Source of the DNA: Promethearchaeota archaeon
Lineage (GTDB): Archaea > Asgardarchaeota > Hermodarchaeia > Hermodarchaeales > Hermodarchaeaceae
Reading direction: 5' to 3'
Length of the DNA stretch: 37,514 nt
Assembly: GCA_048939245.1 (NCBI GenBank)
Contig: JBHLPR010000019.1
Coordinates: forward strand, 1 to 37,514
Shown: piece after piece, positions 6,976-37,514 of the stretch
Position numbering within the stretch: position 1 is the stretch's first letter
Layout of the letters: each line of letters begins with the position of its first letter
Notes under the pieces: model-generated
Told to the model about the DNA's origin: nothing
Databases searched by the model: none
What the model saw: the letters and a program-made list of their open reading frames with translations, nothing else
Position numbers and translations under genes: made by a program

Positions 6976-8187
6976 ATGGCTGATACAACATATGATGTAA
7001 TAATCGTAGGCGCTGGTCCTTCAGGTCTTCTAGCAGCTGAAACCCTTGCAAAACAAGGAAAAAATGTGGTCGTCCTCGAAAAAGATCAAATTCCAGGGAA
7101 AGACAAACCGTGTGGTGGATTTCTTACCTTAAAGGGTGTACAAGAGGGTCAAATTCCAATTAGCCATGCTGAAAGGATTACAAGGGGAATTTCTCTCGTA
7201 ATACCTTATTCTCCAATATATCATGTTGATTATCCGACTCCCGTTGGAATTCAAATTACTCGAGAAGCACTCGGTCGTCATCTATGTCAACGGGCTGAGG
7301 CTGTCGGTGCGAAGGTCCTTCTTCAGCATCAGGTAATCAATTGTCTAAGAGAGGATGGGTTATGGCGGATAATCAGTAGGGGAAGAACAGAAGAACTTCA
7401 AGGCACACTGCTTATTGGGGCTGATGGCGTCAACTCAACAGTTGCTCGGCAGGTCGGAATACGACCCCGGTTTAGGAAGGACCAACTCGGTCTTACAGTT
7501 CAGGTGCATATTGCTTTACCTGAGGAAGAGATTACCAAACGATTCGGAGAGCGCATGGAACTATATTATGGAAGAGATGTGTGTCCCTACGGTTATCTTT
7601 GGATTTTTCCCAAACGCAATGTAGTGTATGTAGGCGTTGGTTCTCTACTTAGTGCTGTGACTGATCGGTTAGAACGATATCTAGACCGATTCATTGAAGC
7701 CCATCCCAGAGGAAAAATTCAGCTTGCTGGTGGTACGCTTCAGATGAAAGAAAGGGCGTTAGTGCCACTAACTTTCGAACGTCCATCCATTGCAAACGGA
7801 GTTCTATTAGTCGGAGATGCGGCAGGACACTGTAGTGCGATTACTGGCGAGGGAATCCATTATGCTTTAATGGCAGGCATGCTTGCAGGTGAAATAGCAA
7901 CAAAAGCATTGGACAAAGGTGACACTAGTACTCGATACTTGCAGCAGTACGAGAACCGTTGGCAACAGCTTTTTGGGAGTGATCTCAAATGGGGTCTTCG
8001 TCTCCGCAATTATTTCTATCGAAGTTTAACCTCTCTAGACGTAAGTTCTGGGCTGGCATCAAATCAGCGGTTCCTCAAACTTGCCGCTGATCTCATTGTA
8101 GGAATACGACCTTATAGAGACACCATATTACGTACTATTCCCTTTTACCTTTGGCAGCGGTTCAAACGAGCAATTTCCCTTGAATAA
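6976..8187 (+). CDS. Geranylgeranyl-reductase-family FAD oxidoreductase (LipT-like by context)
   Basis: GAGPSG, KPCGG, GADG, GYLWIFPK, LVGDAAG...GEGI; immediately upstream of the lipS2-lpl-lipS1 genes. Confidence 0.88.
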   Translation: MADTTYDVIIVGAGPSGLLAAETLAKQGKNVVVLEKDQIPGKDKPCGGFLTLKGVQEGQIPISHAERITRGISLVIPYSPIYHVDYPTPVGIQITREALGRHLCQRAEAVGAKVLLQHQVINCLREDGLWRIISRGRTEELQGTLLIGADGVNSTVARQVGIRPRFRKDQLGLTVQVHIALPEEEITKRFGERMELYYGRDVCPYGYLWIFPKRNVVYVGVGSLLSAVTDRLERYLDRFIEAHPRGKIQLAGGTLQMKERALVPLTFERPSIANGVLLVGDAAGHCSAITGEGIHYALMAGMLAGEIATKALDKGDTSTRYLQQYENRWQQLFGSDLKWGLRLRNYFYRSLTSLDVSSGLASNQRFLKLAADLIVGIRPYRDTILRTIPFYLWQRFKRAISLE

Positions 8188-8291
8188 TTGATAATATCCG
8201 AAAATCATAAACCCGAAAGCCTAATTTTTCTTGTTTACCTGCTATCTAACATAACAGAAGGTTTCAGTAATTCCTCGGTGAGGAAGGATTC

Positions 8292-9287
8292 TTGTCGAAA
8301 TTTATTAGGCTTTCAGTTGGAACAGCGGCACTTCTTGGACTTGTTCAATGTAGATTAGATGCCCAGCCTAAAACCGCCTACACAATGATGTTCACAAAAT
8401 CACGTTGCAGTGCCAATTGTGCGTTTTGTGCTCAAGCACGAGAAAGTAGTGCAAAAGCTAGCCAGCTTTCTCGTGTGACATGGCCTACTTATACCCTCAC
8501 CCAATTTATTGAAAGCATAACCCAGAATGGTATCAATTTTCCTTTTAACCGCCTATGTATTCAAACTATTTGTTATCCAACCCTTGTTAAAGATTTGAAG
8601 TACCTCATTGCACTCTTCAAGAACTATTTACCCACCATTCCCCTCTCCCTTGCGTTACCCCCTCTAAGTACAAATGACTTCCAAGATTTTTACAACTTGG
8701 GCGTTGATAGAGTCGCTGTTTCACTTGACACAATCACAACTGAATTATTTGAACACTATAAAGGCTCAGGAATGGGTGGTTCGTTTTCTTGGTCCACACA
8801 TCACCAGGCTTTGGAATCTGCCCGCGCAATCTTTGGACCAAATCATACAACTACCCATCTCGTCATCGGATTAGGAGAGACGGAATTCCAAACCGTATTT
8901 CTGCTTCAAGATCTAGTCAATAAGGACATCACAGTTGGACTATTTCCTTTTACACCGATCAGTGGAACATCATTAGAGAATAAGGCACGTCCAGCACTTG
9001 ATCACTATCGTCGTATTCAATTAGCCCACTATTTGGTTCAGAACCGTCTTGTAAACGCCCAACAGATGCAATTTAATTCGTCAAATCAGCTTACGGATCT
9101 TGGTCTCTCCAAAGAGAGGTTAATTGATATAATCGCACGAGGGAAGGCTTTTCAAACTACTGGCTGCCCTTCGTGTAACCGTCCATTCTACACAGAACAA
9201 CCAGGAGGCCCGTTATTTAACTACCCTTATCCTCCCAATGAAGAAGCAATTAAAGAAATCGAAGCCCAACTAGCAGGAGTCCTCTAA
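8292..9287 (+). CDS. lipS2: Radical SAM lipoyl synthase component LipS2
   Basis: CSANCAFC radical-SAM motif and C-terminal TTGCPSCNRP, matching the LipS2 TxGCPxC(N/D)RP motif; adjacent to a lipoate ligase. Confidence 0.85.
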   Translation: MSKFIRLSVGTAALLGLVQCRLDAQPKTAYTMMFTKSRCSANCAFCAQARESSAKASQLSRVTWPTYTLTQFIESITQNGINFPFNRLCIQTICYPTLVKDLKYLIALFKNYLPTIPLSLALPPLSTNDFQDFYNLGVDRVAVSLDTITTELFEHYKGSGMGGSFSWSTHHQALESARAIFGPNHTTTHLVIGLGETEFQTVFLLQDLVNKDITVGLFPFTPISGTSLENKARPALDHYRRIQLAHYLVQNRLVNAQQMQFNSSNQLTDLGLSKERLIDIIARGKAFQTTGCPSCNRPFYTEQPGGPLFNYPYPPNEEAIKEIEAQLAGVL

Positions 9288-9290
9288 CCA

Positions 9291-10088
9291 ATGGCAAAAT
9301 TATGGCGTCTAATACGAACTGGAATCTTCAATGCCTTTGAAAATATGGCAATTGATCATGTCTTACTTGAGGCCTGTCATAAAGAAACAGCTGCAAATAC
9401 AATTCGTTTCTACCGCTGGAGCCCCTCAGCAGTATCAATTGGACGATTTCAACACCTTGATGACGAAGTAGATTCCGAAGCCTGTCGTAAACTCAATGTC
9501 GACATCGTACGTCGACTATCCAGCGGTGGAGCCGTTTACCATGATTTTGATGGGGAACTCACCTATAGCATCATCTGTCGCACAGATGATACGCAACTCC
9601 CATCAGGTGTAATTGAAACATACCAATACCTATGTAATGGGTTATTAGTAGGTCTAAATCGCCTTGGTGTTAGCGCAAAATTTGCACCAGGAACTGAAAG
9701 CTTCTGTCCTAACCTATATGTGAAAAAAAGGAAGATTTCAGGAAATGCTCAATCTCGACGGGGCAATACCTTACTCCAACATGGAACCATCCTACGGAAC
9801 CTTGATCTTAACAAGATGTTTACGTTTTTAAAAATCAACAAACAGAAACCGGATTTAAATGCAATTAAAAAAGCAGCAAATAGACTTACTTCGCTACAGC
9901 AAGAACTCGGAAAACCACCATCCTTCGGACAAATTGAAGAGGCTCTTATTGAAGGTCTTTCTAGCACCTTACCTGCACGGTTTTATGAAGAAGGCTTAAC
10001 TGACGCTGAACTTCAGTCGGCTCGAAAAATCGCTGACTCTTGGTATTCAAAATCTGATTGGACGTTACAACGGGGTTTAAAGACATGA
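9291..10088 (+). CDS. lplA: Lipoate/octanoate-protein ligase (catalytic domain only)
   Basis: NMAID, SIGRFQ, VRRLSSGGAVYHD, KISGNAQ, LQHGT. Confidence 0.9.
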   Translation: MAKLWRLIRTGIFNAFENMAIDHVLLEACHKETAANTIRFYRWSPSAVSIGRFQHLDDEVDSEACRKLNVDIVRRLSSGGAVYHDFDGELTYSIICRTDDTQLPSGVIETYQYLCNGLLVGLNRLGVSAKFAPGTESFCPNLYVKKRKISGNAQSRRGNTLLQHGTILRNLDLNKMFTFLKINKQKPDLNAIKKAANRLTSLQQELGKPPSFGQIEEALIEGLSSTLPARFYEEGLTDAELQSARKIADSWYSKSDWTLQRGLKT

Positions 10089-11044
10089 CCTCAACAGGCA
10101 AGGGAACAAAAACCTTGCAAGAATGGTTTACTTCGCCTTATACTGATCTAAAGGAATTATACAACCAAGCATGGGCTTTAACGCAAAAAACTTTCAAACA
10201 AAAAATCACAGTATTTCGACCTGGAACTGCTTTTCCCTCAGTCTCTGTTACTGGAACCCGCTGTAGACTACAATGTCAACATTGTGTTGGTCATTTTCTT
10301 CATCACATGCACACTATCAATACCCCGCAGGAGCTAATCACTTTCTGCAACAACCTCGCCAATAAACAAGGTGTTGGCTGTTTAATCAGCGGTGGTTGTG
10401 ATGAAAACGGCACAATTCCTCTAACCCCCTTTTTATCCGCATTCTCTGAAATCAAACAATCGACGAATCTTTTTTTGAACGTGCACACAGGATTTCTCTC
10501 AGCTGAACAAGCTCGTGGGCTTTCTCAAACTGGCATTGACTGCGCTTCTGTCGATGTAGTTGGTGACGACCAAACAATCCACACAGTCTATGGTTTAACA
10601 CAACGTACGACAACTGACTATGTTGAAACATTAAAAGCGCTTGAAAAATTCCATATTCCAATAGCGCCACACATTTGTGTGGGTCTCCAAAACGGAGCAT
10701 TGGTAGGTGAACTCAACGCGCTCGAACTCATAAAATCAACCATTGAACCCAAATTGATTGTCATCATCGCTTTAATGCCAACAGAAGGAACACCAATGGC
10801 TGCTAGTGATCCCCCACAACCCCCTGATGTCGCCCGAATTTGTGCTATCGCTCGTTTACTTTTTCCAAATACTGAAATTGCACTTGGCTGTATGCGACCC
10901 CGTGGCGCTATTCGACGTCAAATGGAACAACTAGCAATCCAAGCAGGAATCACACGTCTTGTCCAACCGACGAATGCTACGCTCCAAAACCTTGAGAAGA
11001 GTGGCTACACAATCAACTGGCAAAATGCTTGTTGTGTAATGTAA
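10085..11044 (+). CDS. lipS1: Radical SAM lipoyl synthase component LipS1
   Basis: SVTGTRCRLQCQHC, LISGG, GCMR and C-terminal CC motifs; ATG overlaps the ligase TGA. Confidence 0.85.
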   Translation: MTSTGKGTKTLQEWFTSPYTDLKELYNQAWALTQKTFKQKITVFRPGTAFPSVSVTGTRCRLQCQHCVGHFLHHMHTINTPQELITFCNNLANKQGVGCLISGGCDENGTIPLTPFLSAFSEIKQSTNLFLNVHTGFLSAEQARGLSQTGIDCASVDVVGDDQTIHTVYGLTQRTTTDYVETLKALEKFHIPIAPHICVGLQNGALVGELNALELIKSTIEPKLIVIIALMPTEGTPMAASDPPQPPDVARICAIARLLFPNTEIALGCMRPRGAIRRQMEQLAIQAGITRLVQPTNATLQNLEKSGYTINWQNACCVM

Positions 11045-11066
11045 AACTCTCAGTGTAAAAAGAATG

Positions 11067-11690
11067 TTAAGCAGATATTTTCTCTCGAGATATATTTACA
11101 CCTTCAGAATCGATAATTGCCATCTGAATGGCGCCCCCTGAGGCAATATCACGCTTTCGCGCAGCATTGACAGCTCGGGTGACGAGGTTTTTTCCTTCCT
11201 CAATGGTCATGTTTTCACGATATTCATCTTCCAAGACACCGTAGGCCACAACAGATCCACTCCCTGTGGCTGTAAATTCCTCTTCCTCCAGCATGCTTCC
11301 CAACGGATCAAGCATATAGATATGGCCTCCCTCTTTGTCTACTCCACCAACGATGAGCATCGTAATAAGAGGAAACATACGGTTACGAAACAGAACCGTT
11401 GATGTTAATCGTGAAATCGCTTTTACAGTCAACTCACGACCTTTCTCTAAGGCTTCTAATTGGGCTATGGCGCGAATATTATTTGTGAGTTGTTGTGCGT
11501 CTGCAACGGATCCCGAAATTGTCATTGCTGTATGGTCTGTGATTTGAAGGATTTTCGGAGCCGTATCGCTCGCAACCAGGTAACCCATTGATGCCTGTGA
11601 TTCGGTACCAAGAATCACGCCGCCATTTACTTTCACAGCAACAGTAGTTGTGTGAGACATTAATCGGTGGTTATCATTTTGTCCCATCAT
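11067..11690 (-). CDS. psmB: Proteasome beta subunit
   Basis: TTTV N-terminal nucleophile, E17, K33, GSVADAQ, ATGSGS, RDIASGG. Confidence 0.93.
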   Translation of the reverse strand: MMGQNDNHRLMSHTTTVAVKVNGGVILGTESQASMGYLVASDTAPKILQITDHTAMTISGSVADAQQLTNNIRAIAQLEALEKGRELTVKAISRLTSTVLFRNRMFPLITMLIVGGVDKEGGHIYMLDPLGSMLEEEEFTATGSGSVVAYGVLEDEYRENMTIEEGKNLVTRAVNAARKRDIASGGAIQMAIIDSEGVNISREKISA

Positions 11691-11871
11691 GGCTTGTTAA
11701 CCTCTACCTCAGTGATTAATTGCCCACGAATATATCCACCAATTTAAGTTTTCTTCTCTTTTCGTTTTCGCCACCAACTAATCAAAAACACCAAATCATT
11801 AATGATGGGTCAAAAGATTTTTAGCTGGGACTCTTCTCGTCTCCTTCACTCAGCTTCAAGGTGATTTAATC

Positions 11872-12570
11872 TTGGCATTCCGACCAGAAATCCATGCTCC
11901 CCAAAGCGGTGAATCTCGTAAGGGTCGGGGGTTCAGCCTCAAAGAACTCAAAGATGCAGGTATCGGTCTAGCCGATGCCCGTTGGATGGCAATCCCAATT
12001 GACTCTAGGCGAAAAACCAATCATTCCGAAAATGTCCAATTGCTCAAAGAATACATGAAACGAATTAAGAAACTTGATAAAAGCGTCAAGAAACCTGCAC
12101 CGAAGCCCAAGGCTAAGAAAGCAACACCAACCAAAGCCGCGCCTAAACCTGAGCCCATAGAAACCGACTTAGCAGATCTTAGTGGAGTAACAAAGAAATT
12201 AGCTGAAACTCTGGTGGACGCAGGTGTTAGAAACATTCATGATTTAGCAACAATTTCTCCTCGTCGCTTGGCTCGAATGACTAAATTGAAGCGGAACCGG
12301 GCTGAAAAAATAGTAGATACTGCAAAACGTTATGAGCGGGAAAAGGCGAAGGCAGCCCGTGAAGAAAAAGCAAAGGAACCAAAAATCAAGGAACTGAAAG
12401 ACCTTCCCGAAATCACCCGTTCAGATGTCAAGCAGCTGAAAGAACTCGGTGTCGAATCCCTTAATGATCTTAAAACAGAAAATCCGCGCGACCTTGCTCT
12501 GCTGACTGGAATCTCTGAGGCGCGAATCAAAGATTGGCGAAAAATCATCCGGGACCTAACTAAGAAATAA
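11872..12570 (+). CDS. rpl13e: Ribosomal protein L13e fused to two helix-hairpin-helix-like domains
   Basis: RKGRGFSLKELKDAGI...IPID.RRK...ENV..LK (L13e), then a K/P/A linker and two repeats (LADLSGVTKKLAETLVDAGVRNIHDL; LKDLPEITRSDVKQLKELGVESLNDL). Confidence 0.88.
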   Translation: MAFRPEIHAPQSGESRKGRGFSLKELKDAGIGLADARWMAIPIDSRRKTNHSENVQLLKEYMKRIKKLDKSVKKPAPKPKAKKATPTKAAPKPEPIETDLADLSGVTKKLAETLVDAGVRNIHDLATISPRRLARMTKLKRNRAEKIVDTAKRYEREKAKAAREEKAKEPKIKELKDLPEITRSDVKQLKELGVESLNDLKTENPRDLALLTGISEARIKDWRKIIRDLTKK

Positions 12571-12603
12571 TCAAATCACGGGTTCTGGGTCAAATTTGTT
12601 AGG

Positions 12604-13590
12604 CTATTGCAAATAAGGCTCCCATGGAAACGCTTGTTCTGTAGAATACCAACCAAATTCTCGGTAGAGAATGGCAATTGCCCCTTGAGGTGGTATCAGC
12701 CCCTGTTCTGTAATAATCGCATCAATATATTCAGGCGGTGTAACATCAAAAGCTGGGTTACGAACACTGACCTTTTTCCAGTTTGAAAGTTTTTCCAGTG
12801 AAATTACCTCTGAAGCGTCCCGCTCTTCGATTTCGATTAGCTCTCCAGCCATTGTAGCTGGACTAAATTTGTAGCTTTCAGCGGCAACAAAAAAGTCAAC
12901 TCGCGCCTCGTTAGCTGCTAACGCGACCAAACTGGTCCCAATCTTGTTTACCACTGCACCATTCGCTGTAACCGAATCGGCACCTACAAACACCTTATCA
13001 GACCGAGCAATGAGAAACCGAATAGAATTATCCGTAATCAATGAGCAAGGTATACCTGCTTCATCCAACCATGTTGCTGTAATATGTCCTTGATATTTTG
13101 GTCTGGTTTCAGGAACATAAACGGTGAATTCTGTCCCCATTTGATACGCAGTCTTAAGCACCCCAAAAGCTGTGGCACTATTACAATATGTAAATATTAT
13201 ATCTCCATCTTGAATCAGTCTGGAGCCAATCTGACCAATTGTTTTAACGGCATTATTTGACATTTCAATAAATTTCTCTCCTATCTTTTGACCAGCTTCT
13301 TTGAGTTCGGGAATACTTTCAGTTTGTTCGATTTTTTTGAGTAATCGCGTATAGTAATAGCGCAAGGCATTGGGCAATGATACGGCCGAGGGACGGGTTT
13401 CGTATAATACCTGGGCAGCTACAGCTACGTCTCGAAGAAGCCTAGGAACTCGTTTAGCATTTGACTCCTGTGTAGCGATAACTAGTCCTTTTGCCGCTGC
13501 ACGAGCAATACGTCCAGCACCGCGTGTACGCATCGATTGAATGGCTTCAGCAATTTGCTGTGTTTCCGAGGGAATTTGGCTCATCTTCAT
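12604..13590 (-). CDS. Ribose-1,5-bisphosphate isomerase (eIF2B alpha/beta/delta family)
   Basis: MRTRGAGRIA, TRPSAVSLPNA, TYCNS, ETRP..QG, VGADS...NKIGT, NPAFDVTP. Confidence 0.9.
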   Translation of the reverse strand: MKMSQIPSETQQIAEAIQSMRTRGAGRIARAAAKGLVIATQESNAKRVPRLLRDVAVAAQVLYETRPSAVSLPNALRYYYTRLLKKIEQTESIPELKEAGQKIGEKFIEMSNNAVKTIGQIGSRLIQDGDIIFTYCNSATAFGVLKTAYQMGTEFTVYVPETRPKYQGHITATWLDEAGIPCSLITDNSIRFLIARSDKVFVGADSVTANGAVVNKIGTSLVALAANEARVDFFVAAESYKFSPATMAGELIEIEERDASEVISLEKLSNWKKVSVRNPAFDVTPPEYIDAIITEQGLIPPQGAIAILYREFGWYSTEQAFPWEPYLQ

Positions 13591-13648
13591 TCGCCGAGCA
13601 ATTTAATACGGCATCAGGGTATTAATGCTGTCATGGAGGCGTAATTCG

Positions 13649-14572
13649 TTGAATGTTGATTGGCTCATTAAGAAACTCAAAAGCTATGATATTGCCAGTG
13701 CTGATGGAACCGCCATTGCTGCGGCTTCAGCGCTGAAAGACTTGGCTTTGAAAACAGAAGCAAAATCAACAAAGGATCTTTTTGACCAATTGAAAAAAGC
13801 GGCATATGGCTTACGGGCCGCGCGCCAGAGTTCAGCTGCCCTACATAACTGCCTTGATTGGATCGAGGATGCTGGGCTGAAAGCTTTTCATGAAAAGGTT
13901 TCATTGAAAAAAATGCGTGCAATCGTTGGTAAAGCCTGTGATGAATTCGTCAAACGAATCGCTGAAGCAAAACAAAAAATCGGTGAAATCGGTTCAAAAC
14001 GCATACGATCCGGTGATCGTATCTTAACGCTCTGCCGGAGTACGACAGTGCTAGCTATTCTACAAAAGGTCGTAGAGCAAGGTAAAAAAATTGAAGTCTT
14101 TGTTGCCGAAAGTCGACCCGACCTCGAAGGTCGTCTTTTGGCAAATCAGGTTGCCGAATTAGGAATTCCAGTAACACTCATCACCGATTTTGCTGCACGA
14201 ATATTCCTACCAGACACTGATATACTCTTAGCTGGAGGCGAAGCGATTGCGGCTAATGGTGCTATCGTCTCCAAAGTAGGAACTGCCACGCTCGCTGAAT
14301 TATGTCATGATGCACGGGTTCGCGTCCTCATCGCGGTAGGTAGTTACAAATTTTCCCATGAAACGATATTAGGGCGTCTTATAACACTCGAAGAGGGGAA
14401 TCCTGGGCAGGTCGTCCCCGCTGACGAAATTAATCCACAAATCACAATTAGAAATCCATTATTCGATGTAACCGGACACGAACACATCGATGCCTTCATC
14501 ACAGAACAAGGCATCATTCCACCTCAAGGGGCGTATCTCATTTTCACAACTAACAATCAAAACAAAGAGTAG
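13649..14572 (+). CDS. Divergent eIF2B/R15P-isomerase-family paralog
   Basis: TLCRS, ESRP..EG, GGEA...SKVGT, NPLFDVT; GGAGG SD before TTG at 13649; the N-terminal RGA motif is absent. Confidence 0.85.
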   Translation: MNVDWLIKKLKSYDIASADGTAIAAASALKDLALKTEAKSTKDLFDQLKKAAYGLRAARQSSAALHNCLDWIEDAGLKAFHEKVSLKKMRAIVGKACDEFVKRIAEAKQKIGEIGSKRIRSGDRILTLCRSTTVLAILQKVVEQGKKIEVFVAESRPDLEGRLLANQVAELGIPVTLITDFAARIFLPDTDILLAGGEAIAANGAIVSKVGTATLAELCHDARVRVLIAVGSYKFSHETILGRLITLEEGNPGQVVPADEINPQITIRNPLFDVTGHEHIDAFITEQGIIPPQGAYLIFTTNNQNKE

Positions 14573-14622
14573 AAAGGCTCAAAAGCCTAACTTACCGTGT
14601 TCTCCTTAATACTTCCGAGGAA

Positions 14623-14856
14623 ATGGATAAAATGCCTCCTACATCGTCCAGTTCAAGTAAAAAGCGAGCCAAGAAATTAGCTGAGGTTGATGGGGAACTC
14701 TGTGGCGTCTGCCAAGCATGCGCTACTGTCTGTCCCGTGAATGCAATTGAGGTAACAGAAAATTTCATCCTCATTATTCCTCAAAAATGCACAGGCTGTG
14801 GAATCTGCGTGAAGGTGTGTCCTGTAGGGGCAATCAATCTAATCGAACGTTCATGA
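14623..14856 (+). CDS. 2x[4Fe-4S] ferredoxin
   Basis: CGVCQACATVCP and CTGCGICVKVCP. Confidence 0.92.
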   Translation: MDKMPPTSSSSSKKRAKKLAEVDGELCGVCQACATVCPVNAIEVTENFILIIPQKCTGCGICVKVCPVGAINLIERS

Positions 14857-14878
14857 TAAATTACTATTCGAGGAGTAA

Positions 14879-16096
14879 ATGAAATTGGACAAACATGTTA
14901 TTGTGGTTGGTGCAGGACCTGCCGGCTCATCAACGGCCATTGGTGCACTTAGAGCAGGGGCAGAAGTCATTATCATTGATAGAAAGACCAACGTGGGGGT
15001 TCCTGTACAATGCGGAGAAGCTATTGGTAAGACTGGCCCGGGAGTTGCAGAAATCGATATTCCTGAAGAAGCAATTCGTGCACCAGTTCGCGGGTTTCGT
15101 CTTTATAGCCCTGGACAGATATGCGTCGATTACGCTACGGCTGAACCGAGTGGCTTCATTATTGATCGACGTGTATTTGACAAAGAGCTATTTGCGCGCG
15201 CAACAGAAGCTGGTGCAGATAGCCTTCTAGGTGCCCGAGTAATTGATGTAACACGCTCTAACGGGGCTATTGCCGGTGTGGTCGTGCGTCATGATGGTAA
15301 ACGCAAAACTCTGAAAGCCAGAGTAGTGATAGGTGCTGATGGCGTAAATAGTCAGATTGCCCGATTTACAGGGCTACGAAAAGCCTACAAACCTGATGAT
15401 ATTGACTCATGCTTCGCTTACGAAATGGCTAATTGTAACCTCGAAGTCACCGATCTGATGGAATTTCTCCTCGGCAGTGAGGTGTCACCACGAGGATATA
15501 TCTGGATTTTTCCCAAAGGAGAAGGCCGTGCAAACGTAGGAATCGGGATCGGCGGTGGGGTCGAAGCAAAGACTGCCAAGGAATATCTGGACCATTTTCT
15601 CAAACACCATGATGTAGCAAAACAGCAATTACGCAACGCAAAGGTCATCGAAACTCGAGTAGGTGCATTACCCGTATGTGGTCCAAATAAAACCAATGTT
15701 GTTGATGGCGCGCTCCTAGTCGGGGATGCAGCTGGGCAAATTCACCCAATCACTGGTGGGGGAATGGGCTATGCTATAGTCTGCGGAAATATTGCAGGGA
15801 ATGTTGCCGCAGAATGTGCACAAAAAGAAACTGTTAGGGCATCAGACTTGCAGAAATACGAGAAAGAATGGCGAAAGCTCTACGACGATGAATTTGAGCA
15901 ATCTCTGAAACTCCGAGACCTCATCTTACAAACTGAAGATGAAACTCTCGATAAACTCGCAAATATTGTCACAGGCGAATCAATCGTTGCAATGACAGCT
16001 GGTAAAAAAGTCAAAATTTTCATGAAAGCAATGGCGACAAAAGATCGAAAACTCATCGCCTTAATGAAGGAATTAAGAAAACTTCGTATGGTCTAA
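14879..16096 (+). CDS. Digeranylgeranylglycerophospholipid reductase (GGR family)
   Basis: GAGPAG, PVQCGE, DRRVFDKEL, PRGYIWIFPKG, GDAAGQIHPITGGG; ferredoxin gene upstream. Confidence 0.9.
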   Translation: MKLDKHVIVVGAGPAGSSTAIGALRAGAEVIIIDRKTNVGVPVQCGEAIGKTGPGVAEIDIPEEAIRAPVRGFRLYSPGQICVDYATAEPSGFIIDRRVFDKELFARATEAGADSLLGARVIDVTRSNGAIAGVVVRHDGKRKTLKARVVIGADGVNSQIARFTGLRKAYKPDDIDSCFAYEMANCNLEVTDLMEFLLGSEVSPRGYIWIFPKGEGRANVGIGIGGGVEAKTAKEYLDHFLKHHDVAKQQLRNAKVIETRVGALPVCGPNKTNVVDGALLVGDAAGQIHPITGGGMGYAIVCGNIAGNVAAECAQKETVRASDLQKYEKEWRKLYDDEFEQSLKLRDLILQTEDETLDKLANIVTGESIVAMTAGKKVKIFMKAMATKDRKLIALMKELRKLRMV

Positions 16097-16169
16097 TATC
16101 GAATCGAATACTGTAAACAACTTTAAATCATCATTCTCCTTTCATAAGCAAGGAACCGAGGTAAGATCC

Positions 16170-16652
16170 ATGGCATCTTCAAACACTAGTTTAATTGTCG
16201 CGATAATTGTTGGCTTCATTGCCACATTAGGTATTGCTTATGGACTCATCTATGCAACAGCAATAGACCTGTTACCGATTGTTGGACCCGGTCTGGTTCC
16301 AGGCTCACTTGCGTCAACCTTCGATGGGGAAAGTCTAATAATGCAAATTTTCATGATTTACCATGATCTGCTTCTCAATATCCTCGTCGTCTATATTCTG
16401 GCTCCAGCTATCTGGCTAATCGGTGGTCTCATTGCAGGATTAATTAGCCGGGATATGGTAAAGGGTGCTGCAGCAGGATTAATCATGGCAATGATTGCTC
16501 CTTTCCTTTGCTACGGATTAGACTTCCTCCTTGGCGGCGCTAATAGCGCACTCCTTCTAACGTGGGTTCTCAATGGTCTACTAGCGGGACTAATTGCTGC
16601 TGTTGGAGGAGTCATAGGCGGGACTCTCACTTCACAATTTGAGGCACATTAA
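16170..16652 (+). CDS. Gly-rich integral membrane protein
   Basis: About 4 hydrophobic segments with GGLIAG / GGVIGG small-residue motifs; GAGGT SD. Confidence 0.8.
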   Translation: MASSNTSLIVAIIVGFIATLGIAYGLIYATAIDLLPIVGPGLVPGSLASTFDGESLIMQIFMIYHDLLLNILVVYILAPAIWLIGGLIAGLISRDMVKGAAAGLIMAMIAPFLCYGLDFLLGGANSALLLTWVLNGLLAGLIAAVGGVIGGTLTSQFEAH

Positions 16653-16696
16653 AAGCTAAATCATATTAATAAGCTTAAACGCACAGGCTCCTTACT

Positions 16697-17293
16697 ATGC
16701 CTCAAGTTAGGAATTCACGTATTGCTTCACTAGGAATTCCCATAGGCATTGGAATCGCTGTTATCCTATATATAACTCAACCATACTTGATTCAGCCAAT
16801 CGTCTATACTACATACATTACGCTTATCGATCCCCTTCAATTATATGAGCTAGCTTGGATAATGGCTACTATCGATTTACTCCTGAATTTTTCATTCCAA
16901 TTTTCCTTCCTTCTTTGGATTGCAGTTACTATTATTATTGCACTATTTCTCAGGAAACTTCATATTACTCTCTCAACCCTGAGTGCAGCTATTCTTCTTC
17001 CCGCAGGTACATGGCTCCTTTTTACAATCAAATATCTCTACTTACCCGGATTTTCAATCGGTTTTTTGTTATCATTTCTAATTTGGCAGACATTGCTACC
17101 TCTTGGTATTACGCTAGGGTTGGCAACTCTCATCACTCTACCTTTCATCATATATCAACGACAAAAATCATCTCTCATAACCGCTCCTATCTCGGTCAAA
17201 TCTACCTGCACCAAATGTGGCGCTGTTTACCGATCAAAGCCACAGATTTGCATCCAATGCGGTGAAGAAGGCACATTAATCGATAGTCAATAG
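16697..17293 (+). CDS. Membrane protein with C-terminal zinc ribbon
   Basis: Several TM segments followed by CTKCG...CIQCG. Confidence 0.8.
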   Translation: MPQVRNSRIASLGIPIGIGIAVILYITQPYLIQPIVYTTYITLIDPLQLYELAWIMATIDLLLNFSFQFSFLLWIAVTIIIALFLRKLHITLSTLSAAILLPAGTWLLFTIKYLYLPGFSIGFLLSFLIWQTLLPLGITLGLATLITLPFIIYQRQKSSLITAPISVKSTCTKCGAVYRSKPQICIQCGEEGTLIDSQ

Positions 17294-17373
17294 GTGTTTA
17301 ATTGAGGTTTCAACAATTCCTCTTGTGATTACCGCAATTTTTGTATGGTCGTATTGAGAAAATGATAAAGACT

Positions 17374-17381
17374 TATAATTT
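17374..17381 (+). promoter_or_regulatory. Candidate TATA box for the intergenic RNA
   Basis: TTATAATT preceded by purine-rich GATAAAGA and centred about 24 nt upstream of 17401. Confidence 0.5.
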
Positions 17382-17400
17382 CCACTAATACTAATTCATA

Positions 17401-17532
17401 AGCCGGTCAGGGCAGCGACGCAATTTTAAATCAAACGCAACACCCCTCATAGGCAGAATCCTCCCAAGGCCTCAGGCCCGAATCGTCCTCGCCCTCCAAA
17501 AAATCTCCCTCCTCCCTCGACTGCCCTCCGGC
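17401..17532 (+). ncRNA. Unassigned structured non-coding RNA candidate (~132 nt)
   Basis: 5' GCCGG-TC-AGGGCAG-CGA pairs with 3' TCG-A-CTGCCCT-CCGGC (15 bp). GC-rich island in an AT-rich spacer, with a TATA box upstream and TTTTTTCTTT downstream. Confidence 0.55.
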
Positions 17533-17578
17533 ATCATTTTTTCTTTAAAAGTAATTTCACGCTTCTTGTTGAGAATGC

Positions 17579-18442
17579 TTAGGCGGAGGCTGGTGTGGCT
17601 AGAATGCGATTGCTGATTGCAAACTCTAAAACATCAACAATGGCATATTCGGGGAGTCCTAAAAGGAATGCGATGGTTTTCACATCGCGTTTGCCATCTA
17701 CAAGGAAAAGCACATCTCGCGCGTAAGGACCAAATTTGTCATAGAGTGCTGTTCCAACTGGTGAACCTGTATCGAGGGCTGCAAGGAGATCTTCACCACC
17801 TTGAGGAATGAAGGTCAAATCAACACGTCCTTCTTCAGGGGCTGGTGGTAGAGGTGGTGGACCGGCTTCGGAGGGTTCAGGCGGAGGAGGTTCCATAGGT
17901 GGGGGCATGGATTCTGTGTCTGGAATTGTGGGTGGTGGAATCGGTTCTGCAGGTGGGGTTGTTGCTGGGGCTGGAGTGGGTTTTGGTGGAGGTTCTTCTG
18001 TTTTTACTTCTGAAGAGGGTGTCGGGCTAGGCTGGGGTGGAGGGACAGGAGGTGGAGTCACTGGTTTGGTTAATGGTACGGGCTTTGGTTCGGTTGACAG
18101 TGTTGGCATAGTTTCAATAATGCGGAGGTTCAGTTCGCGAAGGGCTAGCAGCGTTGCTTTGGTTTTCACTACTGCTATACCAAGGGAAAGGTTTGGTGGA
18201 AAAAGCACGGCAAGAAGCCAATTCTCGGCGATTTTAGAGATTACCACAAGACCGGCTTCAGTGTTAACAGTGAGTTGGCTAATCTGTCCTTTATACAGAC
18301 TCACAGTCTCTTTAACCATGGCTTCGGTTTCCTGGTCAAGGGTACTTTGATAGACAGTATTGTCAGGTGATATGATGCAGAAAGCTTTCACCATTCGGTC
18401 GAAACGAAGGTTGTCCAATGCCCGCTGTACTTCCTCGGCCAT
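17579..18442 (-). CDS. Roadblock-like N-domain + Pro-rich linker + C-terminal winged-helix protein
   Basis: N-terminal AFCIISPDN...LTVNTEAGLVVIS...LLAVLFPPNLSLGIA; ~85-aa P/T/E linker; VLFLVDGKRDVKTIA..LGL....IVDVL wHTH pattern. Confidence 0.75.
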   Translation of the reverse strand: MAEEVQRALDNLRFDRMVKAFCIISPDNTVYQSTLDQETEAMVKETVSLYKGQISQLTVNTEAGLVVISKIAENWLLAVLFPPNLSLGIAVVKTKATLLALRELNLRIIETMPTLSTEPKPVPLTKPVTPPPVPPPQPSPTPSSEVKTEEPPPKPTPAPATTPPAEPIPPPTIPDTESMPPPMEPPPPEPSEAGPPPLPPAPEEGRVDLTFIPQGGEDLLAALDTGSPVGTALYDKFGPYARDVLFLVDGKRDVKTIAFLLGLPEYAIVDVLEFAISNRILATPASA

Positions 18443-18522
18443 AGCTTTGTCTGTACCCCCGATTGCGCAATACTAGCTATACGGTATTTAGAATCAGCGC
18501 TCTAAAATCTTTGCGCCCTACT

Positions 18523-20286
18523 TCATTCAGTCATATTTATGTTGACTTTCTCCCCAATTTTTTCTACGAAACCAAATCCCTTTCGTTCTAATTGGATGAT
18601 TGTTCCTGTTTTTACCTCTTGAAGGGCTTTTTCACCAAGGGCTTCCAAGATTTGAAGGCTTTTTGGGTTCACATCGCCGTTTTTAAAGAGCACATCAGGG
18701 ATGAATATCTTCACTGGAATGGAACTTGGAGTTACCCATTGAACCTTCATTTCTGCTTGATCTACTGCATCTCCAGCGAAACTGCATTTTAAGGCTGTTT
18801 TTGTTTTGTGGTCAACTCGCAGATTAAAGGCGTATTTAAGGCGAAATACATCGTTCTTTCGGAGTTGCTGGGCATCCGTCCCATCAACGAACACGCGATT
18901 CTTTATTACTGCTTGACGGGTTCCTCGCTCTTTAAAATCAGGATGATATGGAAGTTCGGCTGTGAAAGGCTTAGCATCAATGATATCGACAGGCATTGGT
19001 TGCGTCACACAATAATACCGGTTTGCCAGCGGATCAACAAGCTTACGATTTATACCTAATAAGACAGACCAGTCTAAAATCGGTTGAGCCACGCTAAGAC
19101 CCACTTCTCGAGTCATTTCTTTAATTGCTTCAGGAATGATGCCTCGACGGCGAAGCGCTGGCAAAGTCGTAAGACGGATATCGTCCCATCCACTAATTAC
19201 ATTCGTTTCAATGAGTGGTCTAATTTTCCGCTTACTTACTGGGCTCCCTTCTATAGCGAACCGAGACCATTCCTGAATGAATGGCTGAGGATACTGAAAG
19301 AGGTTTCGGATATAAGTTTGAAGTTCCCCCCGGCTAGCAAATTCGTTACTTCGTAGGATGTGGCTAATCTCGTTCCGGTGGTCCTCTAAGGCATTTGCGA
19401 AATCGTAGGTGGGCCAAAGGCGGTATTTATCGCCTTGTATGGGATGAGGAAAGTCAATAATACGAAAAATATTCGGATCGCGCATTACTGCATTAGGATG
19501 TGTCATGTCGATGCGAAGGCGGCAGACAATTTCTCCTTCCGAATACTCTCCGTCAAGAATTGCCTTCCAAATATCGCGAGTTTCCTTCTTTTTGGTCTGA
19601 CGGTGCTCGCAGCTCTTTCCTGTTCGGCGATTCTCACTGATAACATCTGCTGAACACGAACAAAAATACAATTCGCCACGATCAAGTAACTTTTCAGCAT
19701 GCTCGTAGAAATAGGGCATATCGTCAGAAACGTTAAGTTCATCATCCCAATCAAGATTCATCCAACGGTACCCTTTTCTGAATGCCTCATAGTACTCCGT
19801 GTGAACGTTTCGAGGATTGGTATCCTCAAATCGAAGAATTATTCGACCATCGTATTCTCGTGCATAATACCAGTTTATGTATCCTGCATAAGCGTGTCCT
19901 ATATGGGGGTAACCACTCGGTTCAGGCGGTAACCGAGTTATCACTTGTCCCTTTTTCGCTTCCTTTAATGGGGGTAATTCTTTTACTCGTCTTTCTCTCG
20001 TTTTCTCAAGTAATTCCGGTGCCAGTACTTCAAGTTCAGAAATTTGATCATTAATTGACATCTGGTTGATTGTATTTACTGTGCGGTTCACTTTTTCAAT
20101 AATCTCTCGAGCTTGAGGACGTAAGTCGGTTCGTTCAGCGAGTAGCTTCCCAATGACAGCCTTAGCGTCAGCTTTTCCCTCAAATTTAATGGCATTGGCT
20201 AGACTATATTTGCGAATTAAATTCTGAATGACTGAGTTAATATCATCGTTCACGTGACGTCGACCTGTTTTTTCTACAATCTTCAA
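18523..20286 (-). CDS. gltX: Glutamyl-tRNA synthetase (archaeal type; likely start GTG 20253)
   Basis: RLPPEPSGYPHIGH, RFEDTNP, WPTYDFA, SHILRSNEF, VSKRK, GWDDIRL. Confidence 0.95.
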   Translation of the reverse strand: MKIVEKTGRRHVNDDINSVIQNLIRKYSLANAIKFEGKADAKAVIGKLLAERTDLRPQAREIIEKVNRTVNTINQMSINDQISELEVLAPELLEKTRERRVKELPPLKEAKKGQVITRLPPEPSGYPHIGHAYAGYINWYYAREYDGRIILRFEDTNPRNVHTEYYEAFRKGYRWMNLDWDDELNVSDDMPYFYEHAEKLLDRGELYFCSCSADVISENRRTGKSCEHRQTKKKETRDIWKAILDGEYSEGEIVCRLRIDMTHPNAVMRDPNIFRIIDFPHPIQGDKYRLWPTYDFANALEDHRNEISHILRSNEFASRGELQTYIRNLFQYPQPFIQEWSRFAIEGSPVSKRKIRPLIETNVISGWDDIRLTTLPALRRRGIIPEAIKEMTREVGLSVAQPILDWSVLLGINRKLVDPLANRYYCVTQPMPVDIIDAKPFTAELPYHPDFKERGTRQAVIKNRVFVDGTDAQQLRKNDVFRLKYAFNLRVDHKTKTALKCSFAGDAVDQAEMKVQWVTPSSIPVKIFIPDVLFKNGDVNPKSLQILEALGEKALQEVKTGTIIQLERKGFGFVEKIGEKVNINMTE

Positions 20287-20300
20287 ATCATGGGAGACAC

Positions 20301-20909
20301 TTATGCTTTTTGTGACAGTGAAGGGAGCTGTTTTTTCTCCATTATTTTATGTATTAGTTGCGGATCGAGGGTTCGAAGCCAGGAGGTTTTACCCACCGAA
20401 TATTGGTCACCTTTACCAGAGAGAATTGATTCTATTGCGGTAACAACTTCATCGGTCGTCGCATTGGTTGTATCAATTTCAAAGATTCTATGGCGACTAA
20501 TCTTTGCCAGTCCTTGGGAGGTGCATTCACCAAGGATTTCAGCTTGAATGTTTTCCAAAATCTTCTTTGATGACCAATTGCGCTCAGCTAATCTCCTGAT
20601 AAGTGTCAATGGGTGGCAACGAAGAACCACTAACACTCTCAAGAACTCCTTCGGAACTAAATCGGCGAAATGCCCAGTGACAACAAAGAGCTGGTCACTA
20701 TCCTGAAACTGGTTTGTCAGATATTCCTGCAACCTATCAATATCTGCAATAAGAGTTTCTCGCTCGGTATCCTCACCAAAATGAAATTGGTGATTTGTAA
20801 CAACTTGGCTCAGTTCAATAAATTTGGCATCAAGTTGATGGCTGAGAAGGTTTCCTAGCGCGGTTTTGCCTGTTCCGGGTGTGCCAGAAATGGCAATTAC
20901 ATTCTCCAT
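20301..20909 (-). CDS. AK6/Fap7-family adenylate kinase/ATPase
   Basis: ISGTPGTGKT, VLRCHP..L..RL..R.W...KI.EN..AEI. Confidence 0.88.
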   Translation of the reverse strand: MENVIAISGTPGTGKTALGNLLSHQLDAKFIELSQVVTNHQFHFGEDTERETLIADIDRLQEYLTNQFQDSDQLFVVTGHFADLVPKEFLRVLVVLRCHPLTLIRRLAERNWSSKKILENIQAEILGECTSQGLAKISRHRIFEIDTTNATTDEVVTAIESILSGKGDQYSVGKTSWLRTLDPQLIHKIMEKKQLPSLSQKA

Positions 20910-33157: not shown

Positions 33158-33317
33158 ATCTAAAGTGTGTTTTTTTAATGATGGTCGCTATAGAGCCGTT
33201 TTTTGATTGAAATAATTGGATTTAATACTGTATTTATAAGTAAAGAGGTTTTAATCGGTGTAAAATTTAAGTAGGGGCAGTAAGAACGGTTATTTTAACA
33301 AATAACCGGTGATTCTT

Positions 33318-33557
33318 ATGCCCCGAGAAAAAACAACTCGAATAATTCCCCTTGCACCCGTTGATAGGCTGATTCGAAAAGCTGGGGCTGAACGCGTAAG
33401 CGAACATGCAGCCACAGAACTTGGTGAAGTCGTCGAGGAACTTGGAATTGAAATCGCCACCATCGCTAAAGAACTCTCAGAATTTGCGGGACGAAAAACA
33501 GTTACACGAAAAGACGTCAAACTCGCATATAAGCAATGGAAGAAGACGCGGCGCTGA
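33318..33557 (+). CDS. Archaeal histone with short basic extensions
   Basis: IPLAPVDRLIRKAGAERVS...FAGRKTVTRKDVKLA histone fold; GGTGA SD. Confidence 0.93.
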   Translation: MPREKTTRIIPLAPVDRLIRKAGAERVSEHAATELGEVVEELGIEIATIAKELSEFAGRKTVTRKDVKLAYKQWKKTRR

Positions 33558-35254: not shown

Positions 35255-36505
35255 TTAGGATTCATCGGTTGCAGCTTCACCAAGAATCGCTTTTACCTCA
35301 TCAGGAAACTCGATTTCAATGTCCCCACGAAGAATTTTCGATAGTGCTTTTTCAAGCCGTGTTTGGAGCGTTTTCAATCGCGCTGACACTTTGTTAATTT
35401 GTTCCTGAATATGTTTAATTTCCGCTGCTACATCGCGTTTCTCCCATTTGGCACGTTCCAAAGATTTCTCCAATTCCCGTCGCTCATCAACCGAGACGGA
35501 GGACTTTAGTTCAGTTTTCCGAGATTCAAGAGCTGAAAATCGTAGGCGGTACTCATCCAAATTGCCTTTCTCAACCACTTGTCCGCGACTATCAATTACC
35601 TTGCGATTCAGACGCGTTTTGAACTTAATCTTCTTTTTTTCAATTGCATCCACTAACGCGTTTAATCCCGCCTTCAACCGAGAAAGGTCTTCGGTATCTT
35701 TTTGAAAGGCGTGCCATGGATCCGCTGAATAGGCATCAGCGCCTTCCCCCGCTGTTGAAGAAATCATGACCGCTTGTCCCGCCACTTGGCTGAGTTTCTT
35801 GAAGGGTTTTTTGAGAAAATTCAGTTGATTGGTCACCAGCATCCGAATGCTGTCGATTTCGCGTCGGATCTCTTCAATTTCCACCAACCCCGAATCCATT
35901 CGAAATTGCTCAATTCCGTCTTGGTGCTTTTCAACCCGTCCTTCCACTTTTTCACGCTGCCTTTGAAGTTCCACCAACTGCTCCGAGAGGTTCACTAACT
36001 GATGAGATCGGTCTTCTATCTCCTCGACCTCTTCACGGATTAGGTCCACTTGTTTCGGAAGCTTATCTTTTTCCCAGATTTTCTTAATTTTTTGATATCC
36101 TTGGTTAATGGTACGGAATTGGTAATCCAATTCCTTGATAATACGCTTATGCACCTTTGGTAGCCGGCGAATATACCGTTGCCCAGCTAAAGTCACATCG
36201 CGAAGATACCCTTCCAGATCCTGCAATAGTTCCTCCACTGAGGTAAATGTGATTTCTTCAGGAAACTCGATGGTGTCAAACAACACTTTCAAGCGATTCG
36301 CCAGCTTTGCAGCTGCACCTGGCACCGTCATTTCTCCATCAATGACCACTTCTTCGAGCAACTGTTCTGCCGACTCCGTGCTAGCAACCAACGCCTCTTC
36401 AATCCGATCCATCTGTTTCTGAATATCCGCACGGTAATTGAAGAGCAAATCCTTTGTCTGCTCCATAAACCAATCCGGTAATTCATACACATCAATCGAT
36501 GACAC
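35255..36505 (-). CDS. Long coiled-coil hypothetical protein
   Basis: E/K/L/R-rich heptads over most of ~416 aa; no ATPase motif. Confidence 0.8.
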   Translation of the reverse strand: MSSIDVYELPDWFMEQTKDLLFNYRADIQKQMDRIEEALVASTESAEQLLEEVVIDGEMTVPGAAAKLANRLKVLFDTIEFPEEITFTSVEELLQDLEGYLRDVTLAGQRYIRRLPKVHKRIIKELDYQFRTINQGYQKIKKIWEKDKLPKQVDLIREEVEEIEDRSHQLVNLSEQLVELQRQREKVEGRVEKHQDGIEQFRMDSGLVEIEEIRREIDSIRMLVTNQLNFLKKPFKKLSQVAGQAVMISSTAGEGADAYSADPWHAFQKDTEDLSRLKAGLNALVDAIEKKKIKFKTRLNRKVIDSRGQVVEKGNLDEYRLRFSALESRKTELKSSVSVDERRELEKSLERAKWEKRDVAAEIKHIQEQINKVSARLKTLQTRLEKALSKILRGDIEIEFPDEVKAILGEAATDES

Positions 36506-36654
36506 GCCGTTGTCCTCGCAACACCTGAAAAGCCTCATGCATTAAAAAATTACCTCAAGAGAACCTAATCCCACACCCCTCTTAGCAAGACGCGCCAAAA
36601 AGCTTATCAGCGCCACTCCGATAAACAACAATGACGTAGCAAAACACCTGGGAT

Positions 36655-37514
36655 GTGCGGGCCATAATCCACAACGCAATACTTTTTAGCATCAGCCCCC
36701 GCAAAGACGAAGTCGGCCTCCAAGCCAGCGTCATCTTTCGCAAACAATATTGGCGCGTCGACCTTCCCGACGAGCAAATCCGTGAATTCCTTCGCGCCTA
36801 CAAAGAATTCATGAGTCACGTCCAATCCACCGACATCCCCTCCCTCCCCATCCACATCCAAGGCGCCAAATACATCTTCAGCAACATCGAAGATCTTCTC
36901 CTCGTCTTCATCAGCCACATGCAAGACGAAGACAACCGCGTCGCCGAAAAAGTCAAAACCGCCCTCCGCATGATCGTCGGTAAATACGGCACCGAACAAA
37001 CCAAAGAAATCGGCAACAGCGACAACCCCCAACCCCTCGAAGACCTCATCGACAACTACATCATGAGCAAACTCAAAGTCAGCCTCGTCGGCGAAGGCGG
37101 CGTCGGCAAAACCACCCTCCTCCGACTCCTCAAAGGCGGCGCCCCACCCACCGAATACGTCCCCACCATCGCCCTCAGCATCGAACAAATCGAAGCCACC
37201 CGCTACGGCACCTACACCATCATCCTCTGGGACTTCGCCGGCCAAGAACGCTTCCGCCGACTCTGGACCATCTACTTCCGCGGCTCCGACATCGTCTTCA
37301 TCATCACCGACTCCACCCTCAACAACGTCATCGCCACCAAAGAAATCCTCGACGTCATCCGCAAAGACGCCCCCGGCGTCCCCGTCTGGGCCATCGCCAA
37401 CAAACAAGACCTCGAAGGCGCCCTCACCCCCGAACTCGTCGAACGCATCCTCGGCATCCCCGCCTTCGGCATGGTCGCCATCGACCAAAGCCGCAAAGAA
37501 GAAATGATGCAAAT
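36655..37514 (+). CDS. Longin-like domain fused to Arf/Rab-like small GTPase; 3' end runs off the window
   Basis: Not in the ORF track. Manual translation gives IIHNAILFS...AKYIFSNIEDLLLVFISH (longin-like), then KVSLVGEGGVGKTT (G1), YVPTI (G2), LWDFAGQERFRRLW (G3) and ANKQD (G4). Confidence 0.9.
   Translation, partial: MRAIIHNAILFSISPRKDEVGLQASVIFRKQYWRVDLPDEQIREFLRAYKEFMSHVQSTDIPSLPIHIQGAKYIFSNIEDLLLVFISHMQDEDNRVAEKVKTALRMIVGKYGTEQTKEIGNSDNPQPLEDLIDNYIMSKLKVSLVGEGGVGKTTLLRLLKGGAPPTEYVPTIALSIEQIEATRYGTYTIILWDFAGQERFRRLWTIYFRGSDIVFIITDSTLNNVIATKEILDVIRKDAPGVPVWAIANKQDLEGALTPELVERILGIPAFGMVAIDQSRKEEMMQ

Follow-up and report, generated by a model that had tools for sequence, protein, structure and literature searches.

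The window analysed here is the whole of contig JBHLPR010000019.1 (37,514 nt; C90 hereafter) from the Promethearchaeota archaeon assembly GCA_048939245.1 (family Hermodarchaeaceae; genome G000), and its right end lies inside a small GTPase gene whose synonymous sites are almost exclusively C or A. Our analysis indicates that this gene is probably the left arm of a two-armed, strand-polar scar, produced by recurrent break repair or gene conversion with asymmetric handling of mismatches. On each side, C (or A where C would alter the protein) had taken over the strand that has its 3' end directed to the centre, and G (or T) its complement. We infer that the centre is a recombination hot spot directly downstream of the GTPase gene, which in this genome holds a free-standing LAGLIDADG homing-endonuclease gene (HEG).

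Saturation of silent sites in the GTPase gene

The GTPase gene (Pfam matches: Arf 2e-18, Roc 1.4e-17, Ras 5e-15) ends 40 nt past the window, on another contig, with its stop codon at joined position 37554. Silent-site bias was expressed as CA3, the fraction of codons ending in C or A, with ATG and TGG excluded. A preliminary description of this DNA had reported 177 codons without any synonymous G or T ending at the right edge, and the codon count bore this out: all 177 codons ended in C or A, the sole exceptions being ATG (Met) and TGG (Trp), and third positions were C 0.77, A 0.19, G 0.04 (every G from ATG or TGG) and T 0.00. The tract employed about one codon per amino acid (CTC 22, ATC 30, GTC 19, GCC 17, GGC 17, ACC 16, CCC 12, CGC 13, AAA 16, GAA 20, CAA 13), its leucines and arginines being encoded wholly by CTC and CGC, with no TTR leucine and no AGR arginine codons. 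With CA3 averaging 0.52 over the genome, 170 C/A endings in a row have a probability of about 5e-49. At 0.946, the CA3 of the GTPase open reading frame (ORF) was the highest in the genome, where 2858 stop-to-stop ORFs with a length of 120 aa or more averaged 0.52 (sd 0.07). The bias also rose from the left, as had been described, with a CA3 of 0.87 in codons 1-109 and of 0.99 in codons 110-289, where four-fold degenerate sites were C 86, A 3, G 1 and T 0.

To the left of the GTPase gene the bias extended through the intergenic spacer and some 180 nt into the divergent coiled-coil gene (35255..36538, minus strand). This extension was real but small: among the first 60 codons of that gene, G/T endings numbered 39 of 56 (p 9e-4; third positions G 0.45, T 0.27), and in the other 367 codons their fraction was 0.52. 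The spill into the oppositely oriented neighbour claimed in the preliminary description therefore held for these first codons, but most of the plus-strand C excess of the gene came from its Glu/Lys/Arg-rich amino-acid composition.

A mirror-image arm and a LAGLIDADG gene downstream

The final 77 nt of the window overlap exactly with the start of contig C18 (locus L118). The joined sequence contained 13 further GTPase codons, along which the bias faded, a 40-nt AT-rich spacer and a convergent ORF of 543 aa, and the identical gene order was found on single contigs in the congeners G003, G008 and G012. An unbiased core of about 550 nt was followed by about 1 kb with a G/T-rich plus strand, which corresponds to the 5' two-thirds of the HEG: codons 361-543 (the last 183) had a CA3 of 0.51, and codons 81-360 one of 0.85 on the gene's own, opposite strand. 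The focal feature that had been postulated just right of the window thus appeared on C18 as a compositional switch with a LAGLIDADG HEG at it, and the mirror-image G/T zone that had been proposed as a check was present on the same contig. As to the other contents envisaged for the switch, a search of the centre of the locus revealed no ORB-like repeats and no RNA gene (no Rfam family).

The 543-aa ORF was intact and encoded two LAGLIDADG-like motifs (alignment A1) together with helix-turn-helix regions. Pfam LAGLIDADG_3 matched 4/4 aligned members of the HEG family (best E 1e-8), the copy of this genome scoring 18.7 bits, under the 22.5 cut-off; PDB sequence and profile searches with the HEG returned weak helix-turn-helix matches only. 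The gene was present in G000, G003, G008 and G012 and absent from G011, G006, G013 and the sister genus g2. An intact LAGLIDADG-type ORF adjoining a conserved gene, with presence/absence polymorphism among relatives, marks the locus on sequence grounds as that of a putative free-standing HEG. A tblastn search with the last 60 and 110 residues of the GTPase gave no significant copy of its tail in the 7.3 kb past the gene.

A second, paralogous GTPase gene lies a few kb downstream and is likewise C/A-biased in the genus, with a CA3 of 0.88 in G011 (L030 11871-12740) and 0.77 in the G000 copy, found at the end of contig C39; in the sister genus (G018, L036 7742-8605) the value was 0.61. The accessory genes between the two GTPases differ from genome to genome.

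Table 1. Coordinates of the C/A arm, the adjoining core and the G/T arm (positions without prefix refer to the window; L118 positions refer to the locus on contig C18)
Feature	Position	Strand	Basis or remark
Outer fringe of C/A arm: first ~60 codons of divergent coiled-coil gene	36360..36538	-	G/T-ending on own strand
Intergenic spacer, non-coding, plus strand C/A-rich	36539..36654	.	A 45, C 35, G 17, T 19 of 116 nt (69% C+A)
Small GTPase gene, Arf/Roc/Ras-type with N-terminal extension, codons 1-286 of 299	36655..37514	+	Left (C/A) arm
Saturated tract, zero synonymous G/T endings, 177 codons	36982..37512	+	Codon count, third-position tally
G3/switch-II motif WDFAGQE (37228-37248) and preceding codons; candidate second homing/recombination site	37213..37248	+	Two orthologs flip from C/A to G/T; many assemblies break
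77-nt exact overlap with start of contig C18 (L118)	37438..37514	.	C18 carries rest of structure
GTPase end	L118 1-117	+	C90/C18 join
Unbiased core: spacer and HEG codons 361-543	L118 118-~660	.	CA3
LAGLIDADG homing-endonuclease gene, 543 aa, convergent	L118 161-1789	-	Open ORF, two motifs
G/T arm	L118 ~620-1835	plus strand G/T-rich	CA3 on opposite strand

Tract loci and intein sites elsewhere in the genome

Third-position scans of the 2.5-Mb genome yielded 24 tract loci, whose genes include uS19, actin, RadA, hydrogenase subunits, POR and Mrp. The statistics were drawn from this third-position tract list because a segment scan based on composition only mixes in amino-acid effects. Seven of the 24 loci had a LAGLIDADG element at a distance of 2 kb or less, where 0.51 would be expected, and a count of 7 was not attained in any of 5000 permutations. 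Where opposite arms were adjacent (segment scan plus the C90/C18 join), the C/A arm came first in 7 cases and the G/T arm in 1.

The same polarity was found inside single genes at intein sites. In PolB, CA3 was 0.94 in the upstream extein, 0.52 in the intein and 0.38 in the downstream extein; in MCM it was 0.90 in the upstream extein and 0.51 in the intein; and in the PolD large subunit it was 0.80 in the extein, down to 0.12 in the final 42 codons before the contig end. At the PolB intein site, the upstream value exceeded the downstream one in all 14 family f1 loci with both sides available, intein-less alleles included, and this polarity was not seen in the other Asgard families sampled. In the intein-less PolB alleles of two genera (L131, L135-L138; G012, G015-G018), the switch lay exactly at the motif-B insertion site of the intein, with upstream/downstream CA3 values of, for example, 0.80/0.28 and 0.77/0.28. 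Empty sites showed a direct switch from C/A to G/T, as did the GTPase gene of G013 (see below), and occupied sites an unbiased core. From these sequences, a polar switch may be a mark of empty homing sites.

The single-copy uS19 gene (contig C13 3147-3539, locus L121; Pfam 1.8e-31) is C/A-saturated (CA3 0.93) and located away from the L3-L4-L2 operon, which is on C53; a convergent 659-aa gene carries the opposite arm, and no endonuclease gene was recognised nearby. On contig C25, a 12-kb run of C/A segments of the same sign (8067-20579) extends up to the contig end and holds a copy, 20 codons long, of the C-terminus of actin (10916-10975, 90% identity).

Orthologous genes and the position of the switch

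All 14 same-genus orthologs of the GTPase gene were C/A-biased, full-length copies having CA3 values of 0.80-0.94, and the sister-genus ortholog, with 73% amino-acid identity and the same neighbours, had 0.54-0.58. The most informative case was the ortholog of G013, which shares 98% protein identity with that of G000 and was C/A-only up to the G3 motif and G/T-ending beyond it. To the right of that motif, its four-fold sites were G37 T7 C4 A1, its two-fold pyrimidine (Y) sites T15 C4 and its purine (R) sites G15 A6. In G000, the respective counts over these codons were C49 A3 G2, C19 T1 and A15; the G013 spectrum past the motif is thus the exact complement of that of G000. A more distant metagenome lineage (L041, 84% identity) flipped at the same codon. 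In addition, a DinB-family gene (E 9e-19) lying in a plus-strand C/A zone had a CA3 of 0.21. Because of the G013 and L041 flips and of this value, the pressure is strand-symmetric and positional, not codon-specific. The earlier claim that the bias tracks position and not gene was upheld by the ortholog flips at the G3 motif and by the involvement of the spacer and the neighbouring gene.

The pressure is also long-lived. At sites encoding the same amino acid, congeners used identical codons at a rate of 0.73-0.91 in the GTPase, but the two genes that flank it, with silent sites saturated between congeners, gave only 0.38-0.48.

The G3 motif and its preceding codons are a candidate second homing or recombination site, as judged from the sequences compared. 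A search for a longer, intein-bearing ortholog that would establish a homing site at the motif returned no intein families, only paralogs of 45% identity extended at the C-terminus. A 282-aa ORF downstream of the G013 gene was considered as a shared partner of the G/T half and discarded, having no homolog in L041, the other loci or G000. For a relaxed patch in the G008 gene (codons 155-250), the comparison gave no evidence of import, no other lineage matching the patch better than its surroundings.

Assembly evidence and shared stretches

Contigs of four runs, each belonging to a different study, carry the GTPase sequence, as do all 14 congeneric genomes and further, independent contigs from metagenomes, and it is therefore not an assembly artefact; the chimeric join to foreign DNA that the preliminary description had considered was not seen. 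Within the GTPase gene, the run contigs were fragmented to pieces of 100-300 nt and the summed depth rose from ~17 to 115. This fragmentation and rise in depth indicate that co-occurring relatives (or paralogs) carry identical recoded stretches, which fragment assemblies inside the gene, and for this reason contig C90 ends there. The contigs of 8/14 congeners also end within the GTPase gene, four metagenome contigs (L043-L046) end at codons 184-191 and contigs of three runs start at 37218-37219. A 124-nt piece around the P-loop (37037-37160) had ~86x summed depth in two metagenomes, the flanking contigs having ~16-17x.

Discussion

A scar of the kind proposed could arise as follows. A site would be broken and repaired, over and over, from another genome copy or from another lineage. 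In each arm, one given strand would invade as a tail, or would be the one elongated in the direction of the break while the gap is copied from the donor, and an insert copied from either side would be left unbiased. Mismatches on the invading or nascent strand would be treated asymmetrically, the candidate cause being NucS/EndoMS acting in cells without canonical MutS: G and T on that strand would be cut and replaced or converted, and C and A tolerated. The cumulative effect would be a strand-polar biased gene conversion that rewrites only the silent sites of constrained proteins. That this represents an undescribed form of biased gene conversion (or of repair-filtered mutagenesis) in MutS-less, NucS-only archaea, in which break repair drives one strand to C/A, is a tentative proposal that we regard as possible but, on balance, doubtful.

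The role given to NucS draws on published specificities. EndoMS/NucS cuts G/T, G/G and T/T mismatches well, T/C moderately, and A/G, A/A, A/C and C/C poorly (PMC4838380), and the sparing of A/C, A/A and C/C was also reported in PMC6159521; furthermore, NucS prevents homeologous recombination (PMC5290159). The bases excluded from and tolerated in the scar agree with these cut and spared mismatches. NucS genes were present in 15/15 genomes of the genus, and genera g1 and g2 have NucS, with MutS only as a weak 730-750-aa MutS-like match. We searched 41 genomes for runs of 50 successive C/A-ending codons, allowing up to two mismatches. The ten genomes with canonical MutS had 0-79 matches. The MutS-less ones had 87-2622, bar one 0.9-Mb genome with 2, and a majority of these MutS-less genomes were found to have NucS. 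The 'control' column of this search is uninformative because the pattern reads identically in reverse. We found no work tying the specificity of NucS/EndoMS to strand-polar composition or to homing sites, and the link made here is our own inference.

Several observations weigh against a scar of homing-driven break repair, or against the part assigned to NucS. The centre was located by composition, with zero cleavage, target-site or recombination events observed. The HEG-less congeners G011 and G006 retain the C/A arm and lack a clear G/T arm, and the unbiased core comprises only the last third of the HEG and not the entire gene. For seventeen of the 24 tract loci, no endonuclease was recognised up to 2 kb away, and only 3/8 HEG paralogs found by tblastn show the skew. 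The correlation with MutS is only suggestive, as some matches in relatives at the level of other phyla fall in genes resembling EF-2 and S12, where ordinary codon selection may be at work, and the genomes are not independent of one another phylogenetically. Genus g3 combines a PolB-site intein and NucS with the lack of canonical MutS and yet shows no polarity; therefore, NucS-only status is not sufficient. Finally, the exclusion of G and T agrees with the EndoMS specificity, but the same specificity predicts A at least as frequent as C on the protected strand, and the four-fold sites were C 86 : A 3, so that an extra GC-favouring step is needed for C to exceed A by so much.

Two of the alternatives would place the cause in translation or in replication. 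If C/A-ending codons were translationally optimal and the GTPase very highly expressed, expression-linked selection could shape the gene, and both the C/A-ending runs that other Asgard genomes have in genes resembling EF-2 and S12 and the conserved housekeeping nature of several biased genes of this genome fit that idea. Nevertheless, the bona fide highly expressed genes were unbiased here (CA3: EF-1a 0.50, thermosomes 0.47 and 0.54, L2 0.51, L3 0.60, L4 0.48), against 0.95 for the GTPase. The sister-genus ortholog is unbiased as well, two orthologs are G/T-ending in their 3' half, PolB flips inside one ORF, and intergenic DNA and the 5' end of the neighbour share the bias. Expression-linked selection is thus already contradicted, and we see hardly any likelihood in it. 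The preliminary description had itself pointed out that orthologs alike regardless of location would speak for such selection, and this is not what the sister genus and the highly expressed genes showed. A replication origin just right of the window, which the same description had put forward as a candidate, or the origin of an integrated replicon there, would give the polarity of a classical skew switch, with a plus strand rich in C/A on the left and in G/T on the right. However, 24 loci in 2.5 Mb are more than origins could account for, the centre has the GTPase gene and the LAGLIDADG ORF with neither ORB-like repeats nor RNA genes, and the same pattern occurs within PolB, MCM and PolD at intein sites, all of which makes an origin extremely improbable.

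Deamination (C>T and A>G) of a strand repeatedly exposed as single-stranded DNA, for instance when break-induced or strand-displacement synthesis displaces the nascent strand, would equal G>A and T>C on the C/A strand, as seen at two-fold sites; the polarity suits a nascent strand running away from the centre, and an arm of ~1 kb is plausible for repair synthesis. The four-fold sites are ~95% C and not a C/A mix, though, and the recoding of Leu and Arg requires transversions. Resected 3' tails, the best-documented exposed strand under ordinary 5'-3' resection, would acquire the opposite polarity, and EndoV and UDG genes were present in all 15 genomes of the genus, which also led us to reject a loss of deamination repair as the cause. 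The deamination signature read from the sequence in the preliminary description is accordingly not a pure one, and deamination is in our view an unlikely source of the pattern. We find quite unlikely, too, that selection acts on the element itself, unstructured 3' tails (C/A-only, unable to self-pair) or NucS-invisible ones aiding homing, also across species, with the flanks hitch-hiking. The C/A strand is indeed the would-be 3' tail on both arms, and recoding leads to near-identical DNA in diverged species, as the codon identities and the rise in depth given above attest; the invading tail in homing, however, is the recipient's and not the element's, and HEG-less genomes retain the arm. Error-prone fill-in of the resected strand by a polymerase over-inserting dGTP (and dTTP) would leave a G/T-rich resynthesised strand with the right polarity, and dGTP misinsertion opposite T and A could yield a large excess of G over T, that is, of C over A on the complement. 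We consider it improbable, given that the resulting G/T mismatches are those that NucS repairs best (PMC4838380), that no polymerase emerged as a candidate and that very many events would be required.

In the literature searched we found no description of a polar synonymous skew at homing or intein sites, but the proposed scar of polar break repair shares traits with several known systems. In intein and intron homing, and in the 'intronless homing' promoted by free-standing endonucleases of the phage T4 type, flanks are co-converted, the flanks of the donor being copied. The present locus resembles these systems in the endonuclease gene beside a conserved host gene, its presence/absence in close relatives and the rewriting of flanks over hundreds of bases, and differs from them in its directional composition and mirror-image skew, neither of which, to our knowledge, has been reported as imposed by co-conversion. 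Double-strand breaks and break-induced replication in yeast give rise to strand-coordinated mutation clusters, by single-event C damage on exposed strands. As in these clusters, the affected strand switches at the break and the scale is that of kilobases, but the scar would be an evolutionary steady state with another spectrum and, for resected tails, the opposite polarity. The GC/AT skew of origins and the gradient of mitochondrial heavy strands likewise pass from C/A on the left to G/T on the right and change with distance; the scar differs in being saturating, ~1 kb long, repeated at dozens of sites per genome, centred on inteins or HEGs and free of origin features. GC-biased gene conversion at recombination hot spots (Duret & Galtier 2009, as cited in PMC11276520) is similarly a non-adaptive, recombination-linked drive that saturates silent sites locally and leaves proteins intact, and the large excess of C over A (G over T) at the four-fold sites of the scar resembles its weak-to-strong (A/T to G/C) bias. 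The scar, unlike the product of that process, is strand-polar, with complementary arms, and tied to archaeal homing-endonuclease sites; moreover, all Lys, Glu and Gln codons of the C/A arm carry A in place of G, which is not what a weak-to-strong bias on both strands would leave.

Should the proposed origin of the scar be correct, the blind spot of NucS/EndoMS would be visible as a genome-scale signature and provide an in-vivo readout for uncultured Asgard archaea. The silent sites of core genes, namely those of the small GTPase, actin, RadA, MCM, PolB and uS19, could be ruled by recombination driven by selfish elements and not by mutation or translation. Analyses of dN/dS, codon usage and phylogeny would then be distorted for the very eukaryote-like genes that draw attention to Asgard archaea. 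Convergent recoding would give co-occurring species identical stretches and break metagenome assemblies inside these genes, and the near-identity of conserved genes in long-diverged species could make it easier for recombination and homing to cross species boundaries. The polar C/A to G/T switch could then be used in computational searches to mark homing sites, whether present or past, empty ones included.

Other features of the window

The composition-only scan also marked a segment with a G/T-rich plus strand at 17723-18247, inside a gene for a 287-aa protein (17579-18442, minus strand). This segment was rejected as a silent-site phenomenon, its composition being an amino-acid effect of the long Pro/Thr-rich linker of the protein. 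Upstream of an aminotransferase gene, a small ORF (33309-33557, plus strand) has the look of an archaeal histone fold and an ordinary composition.

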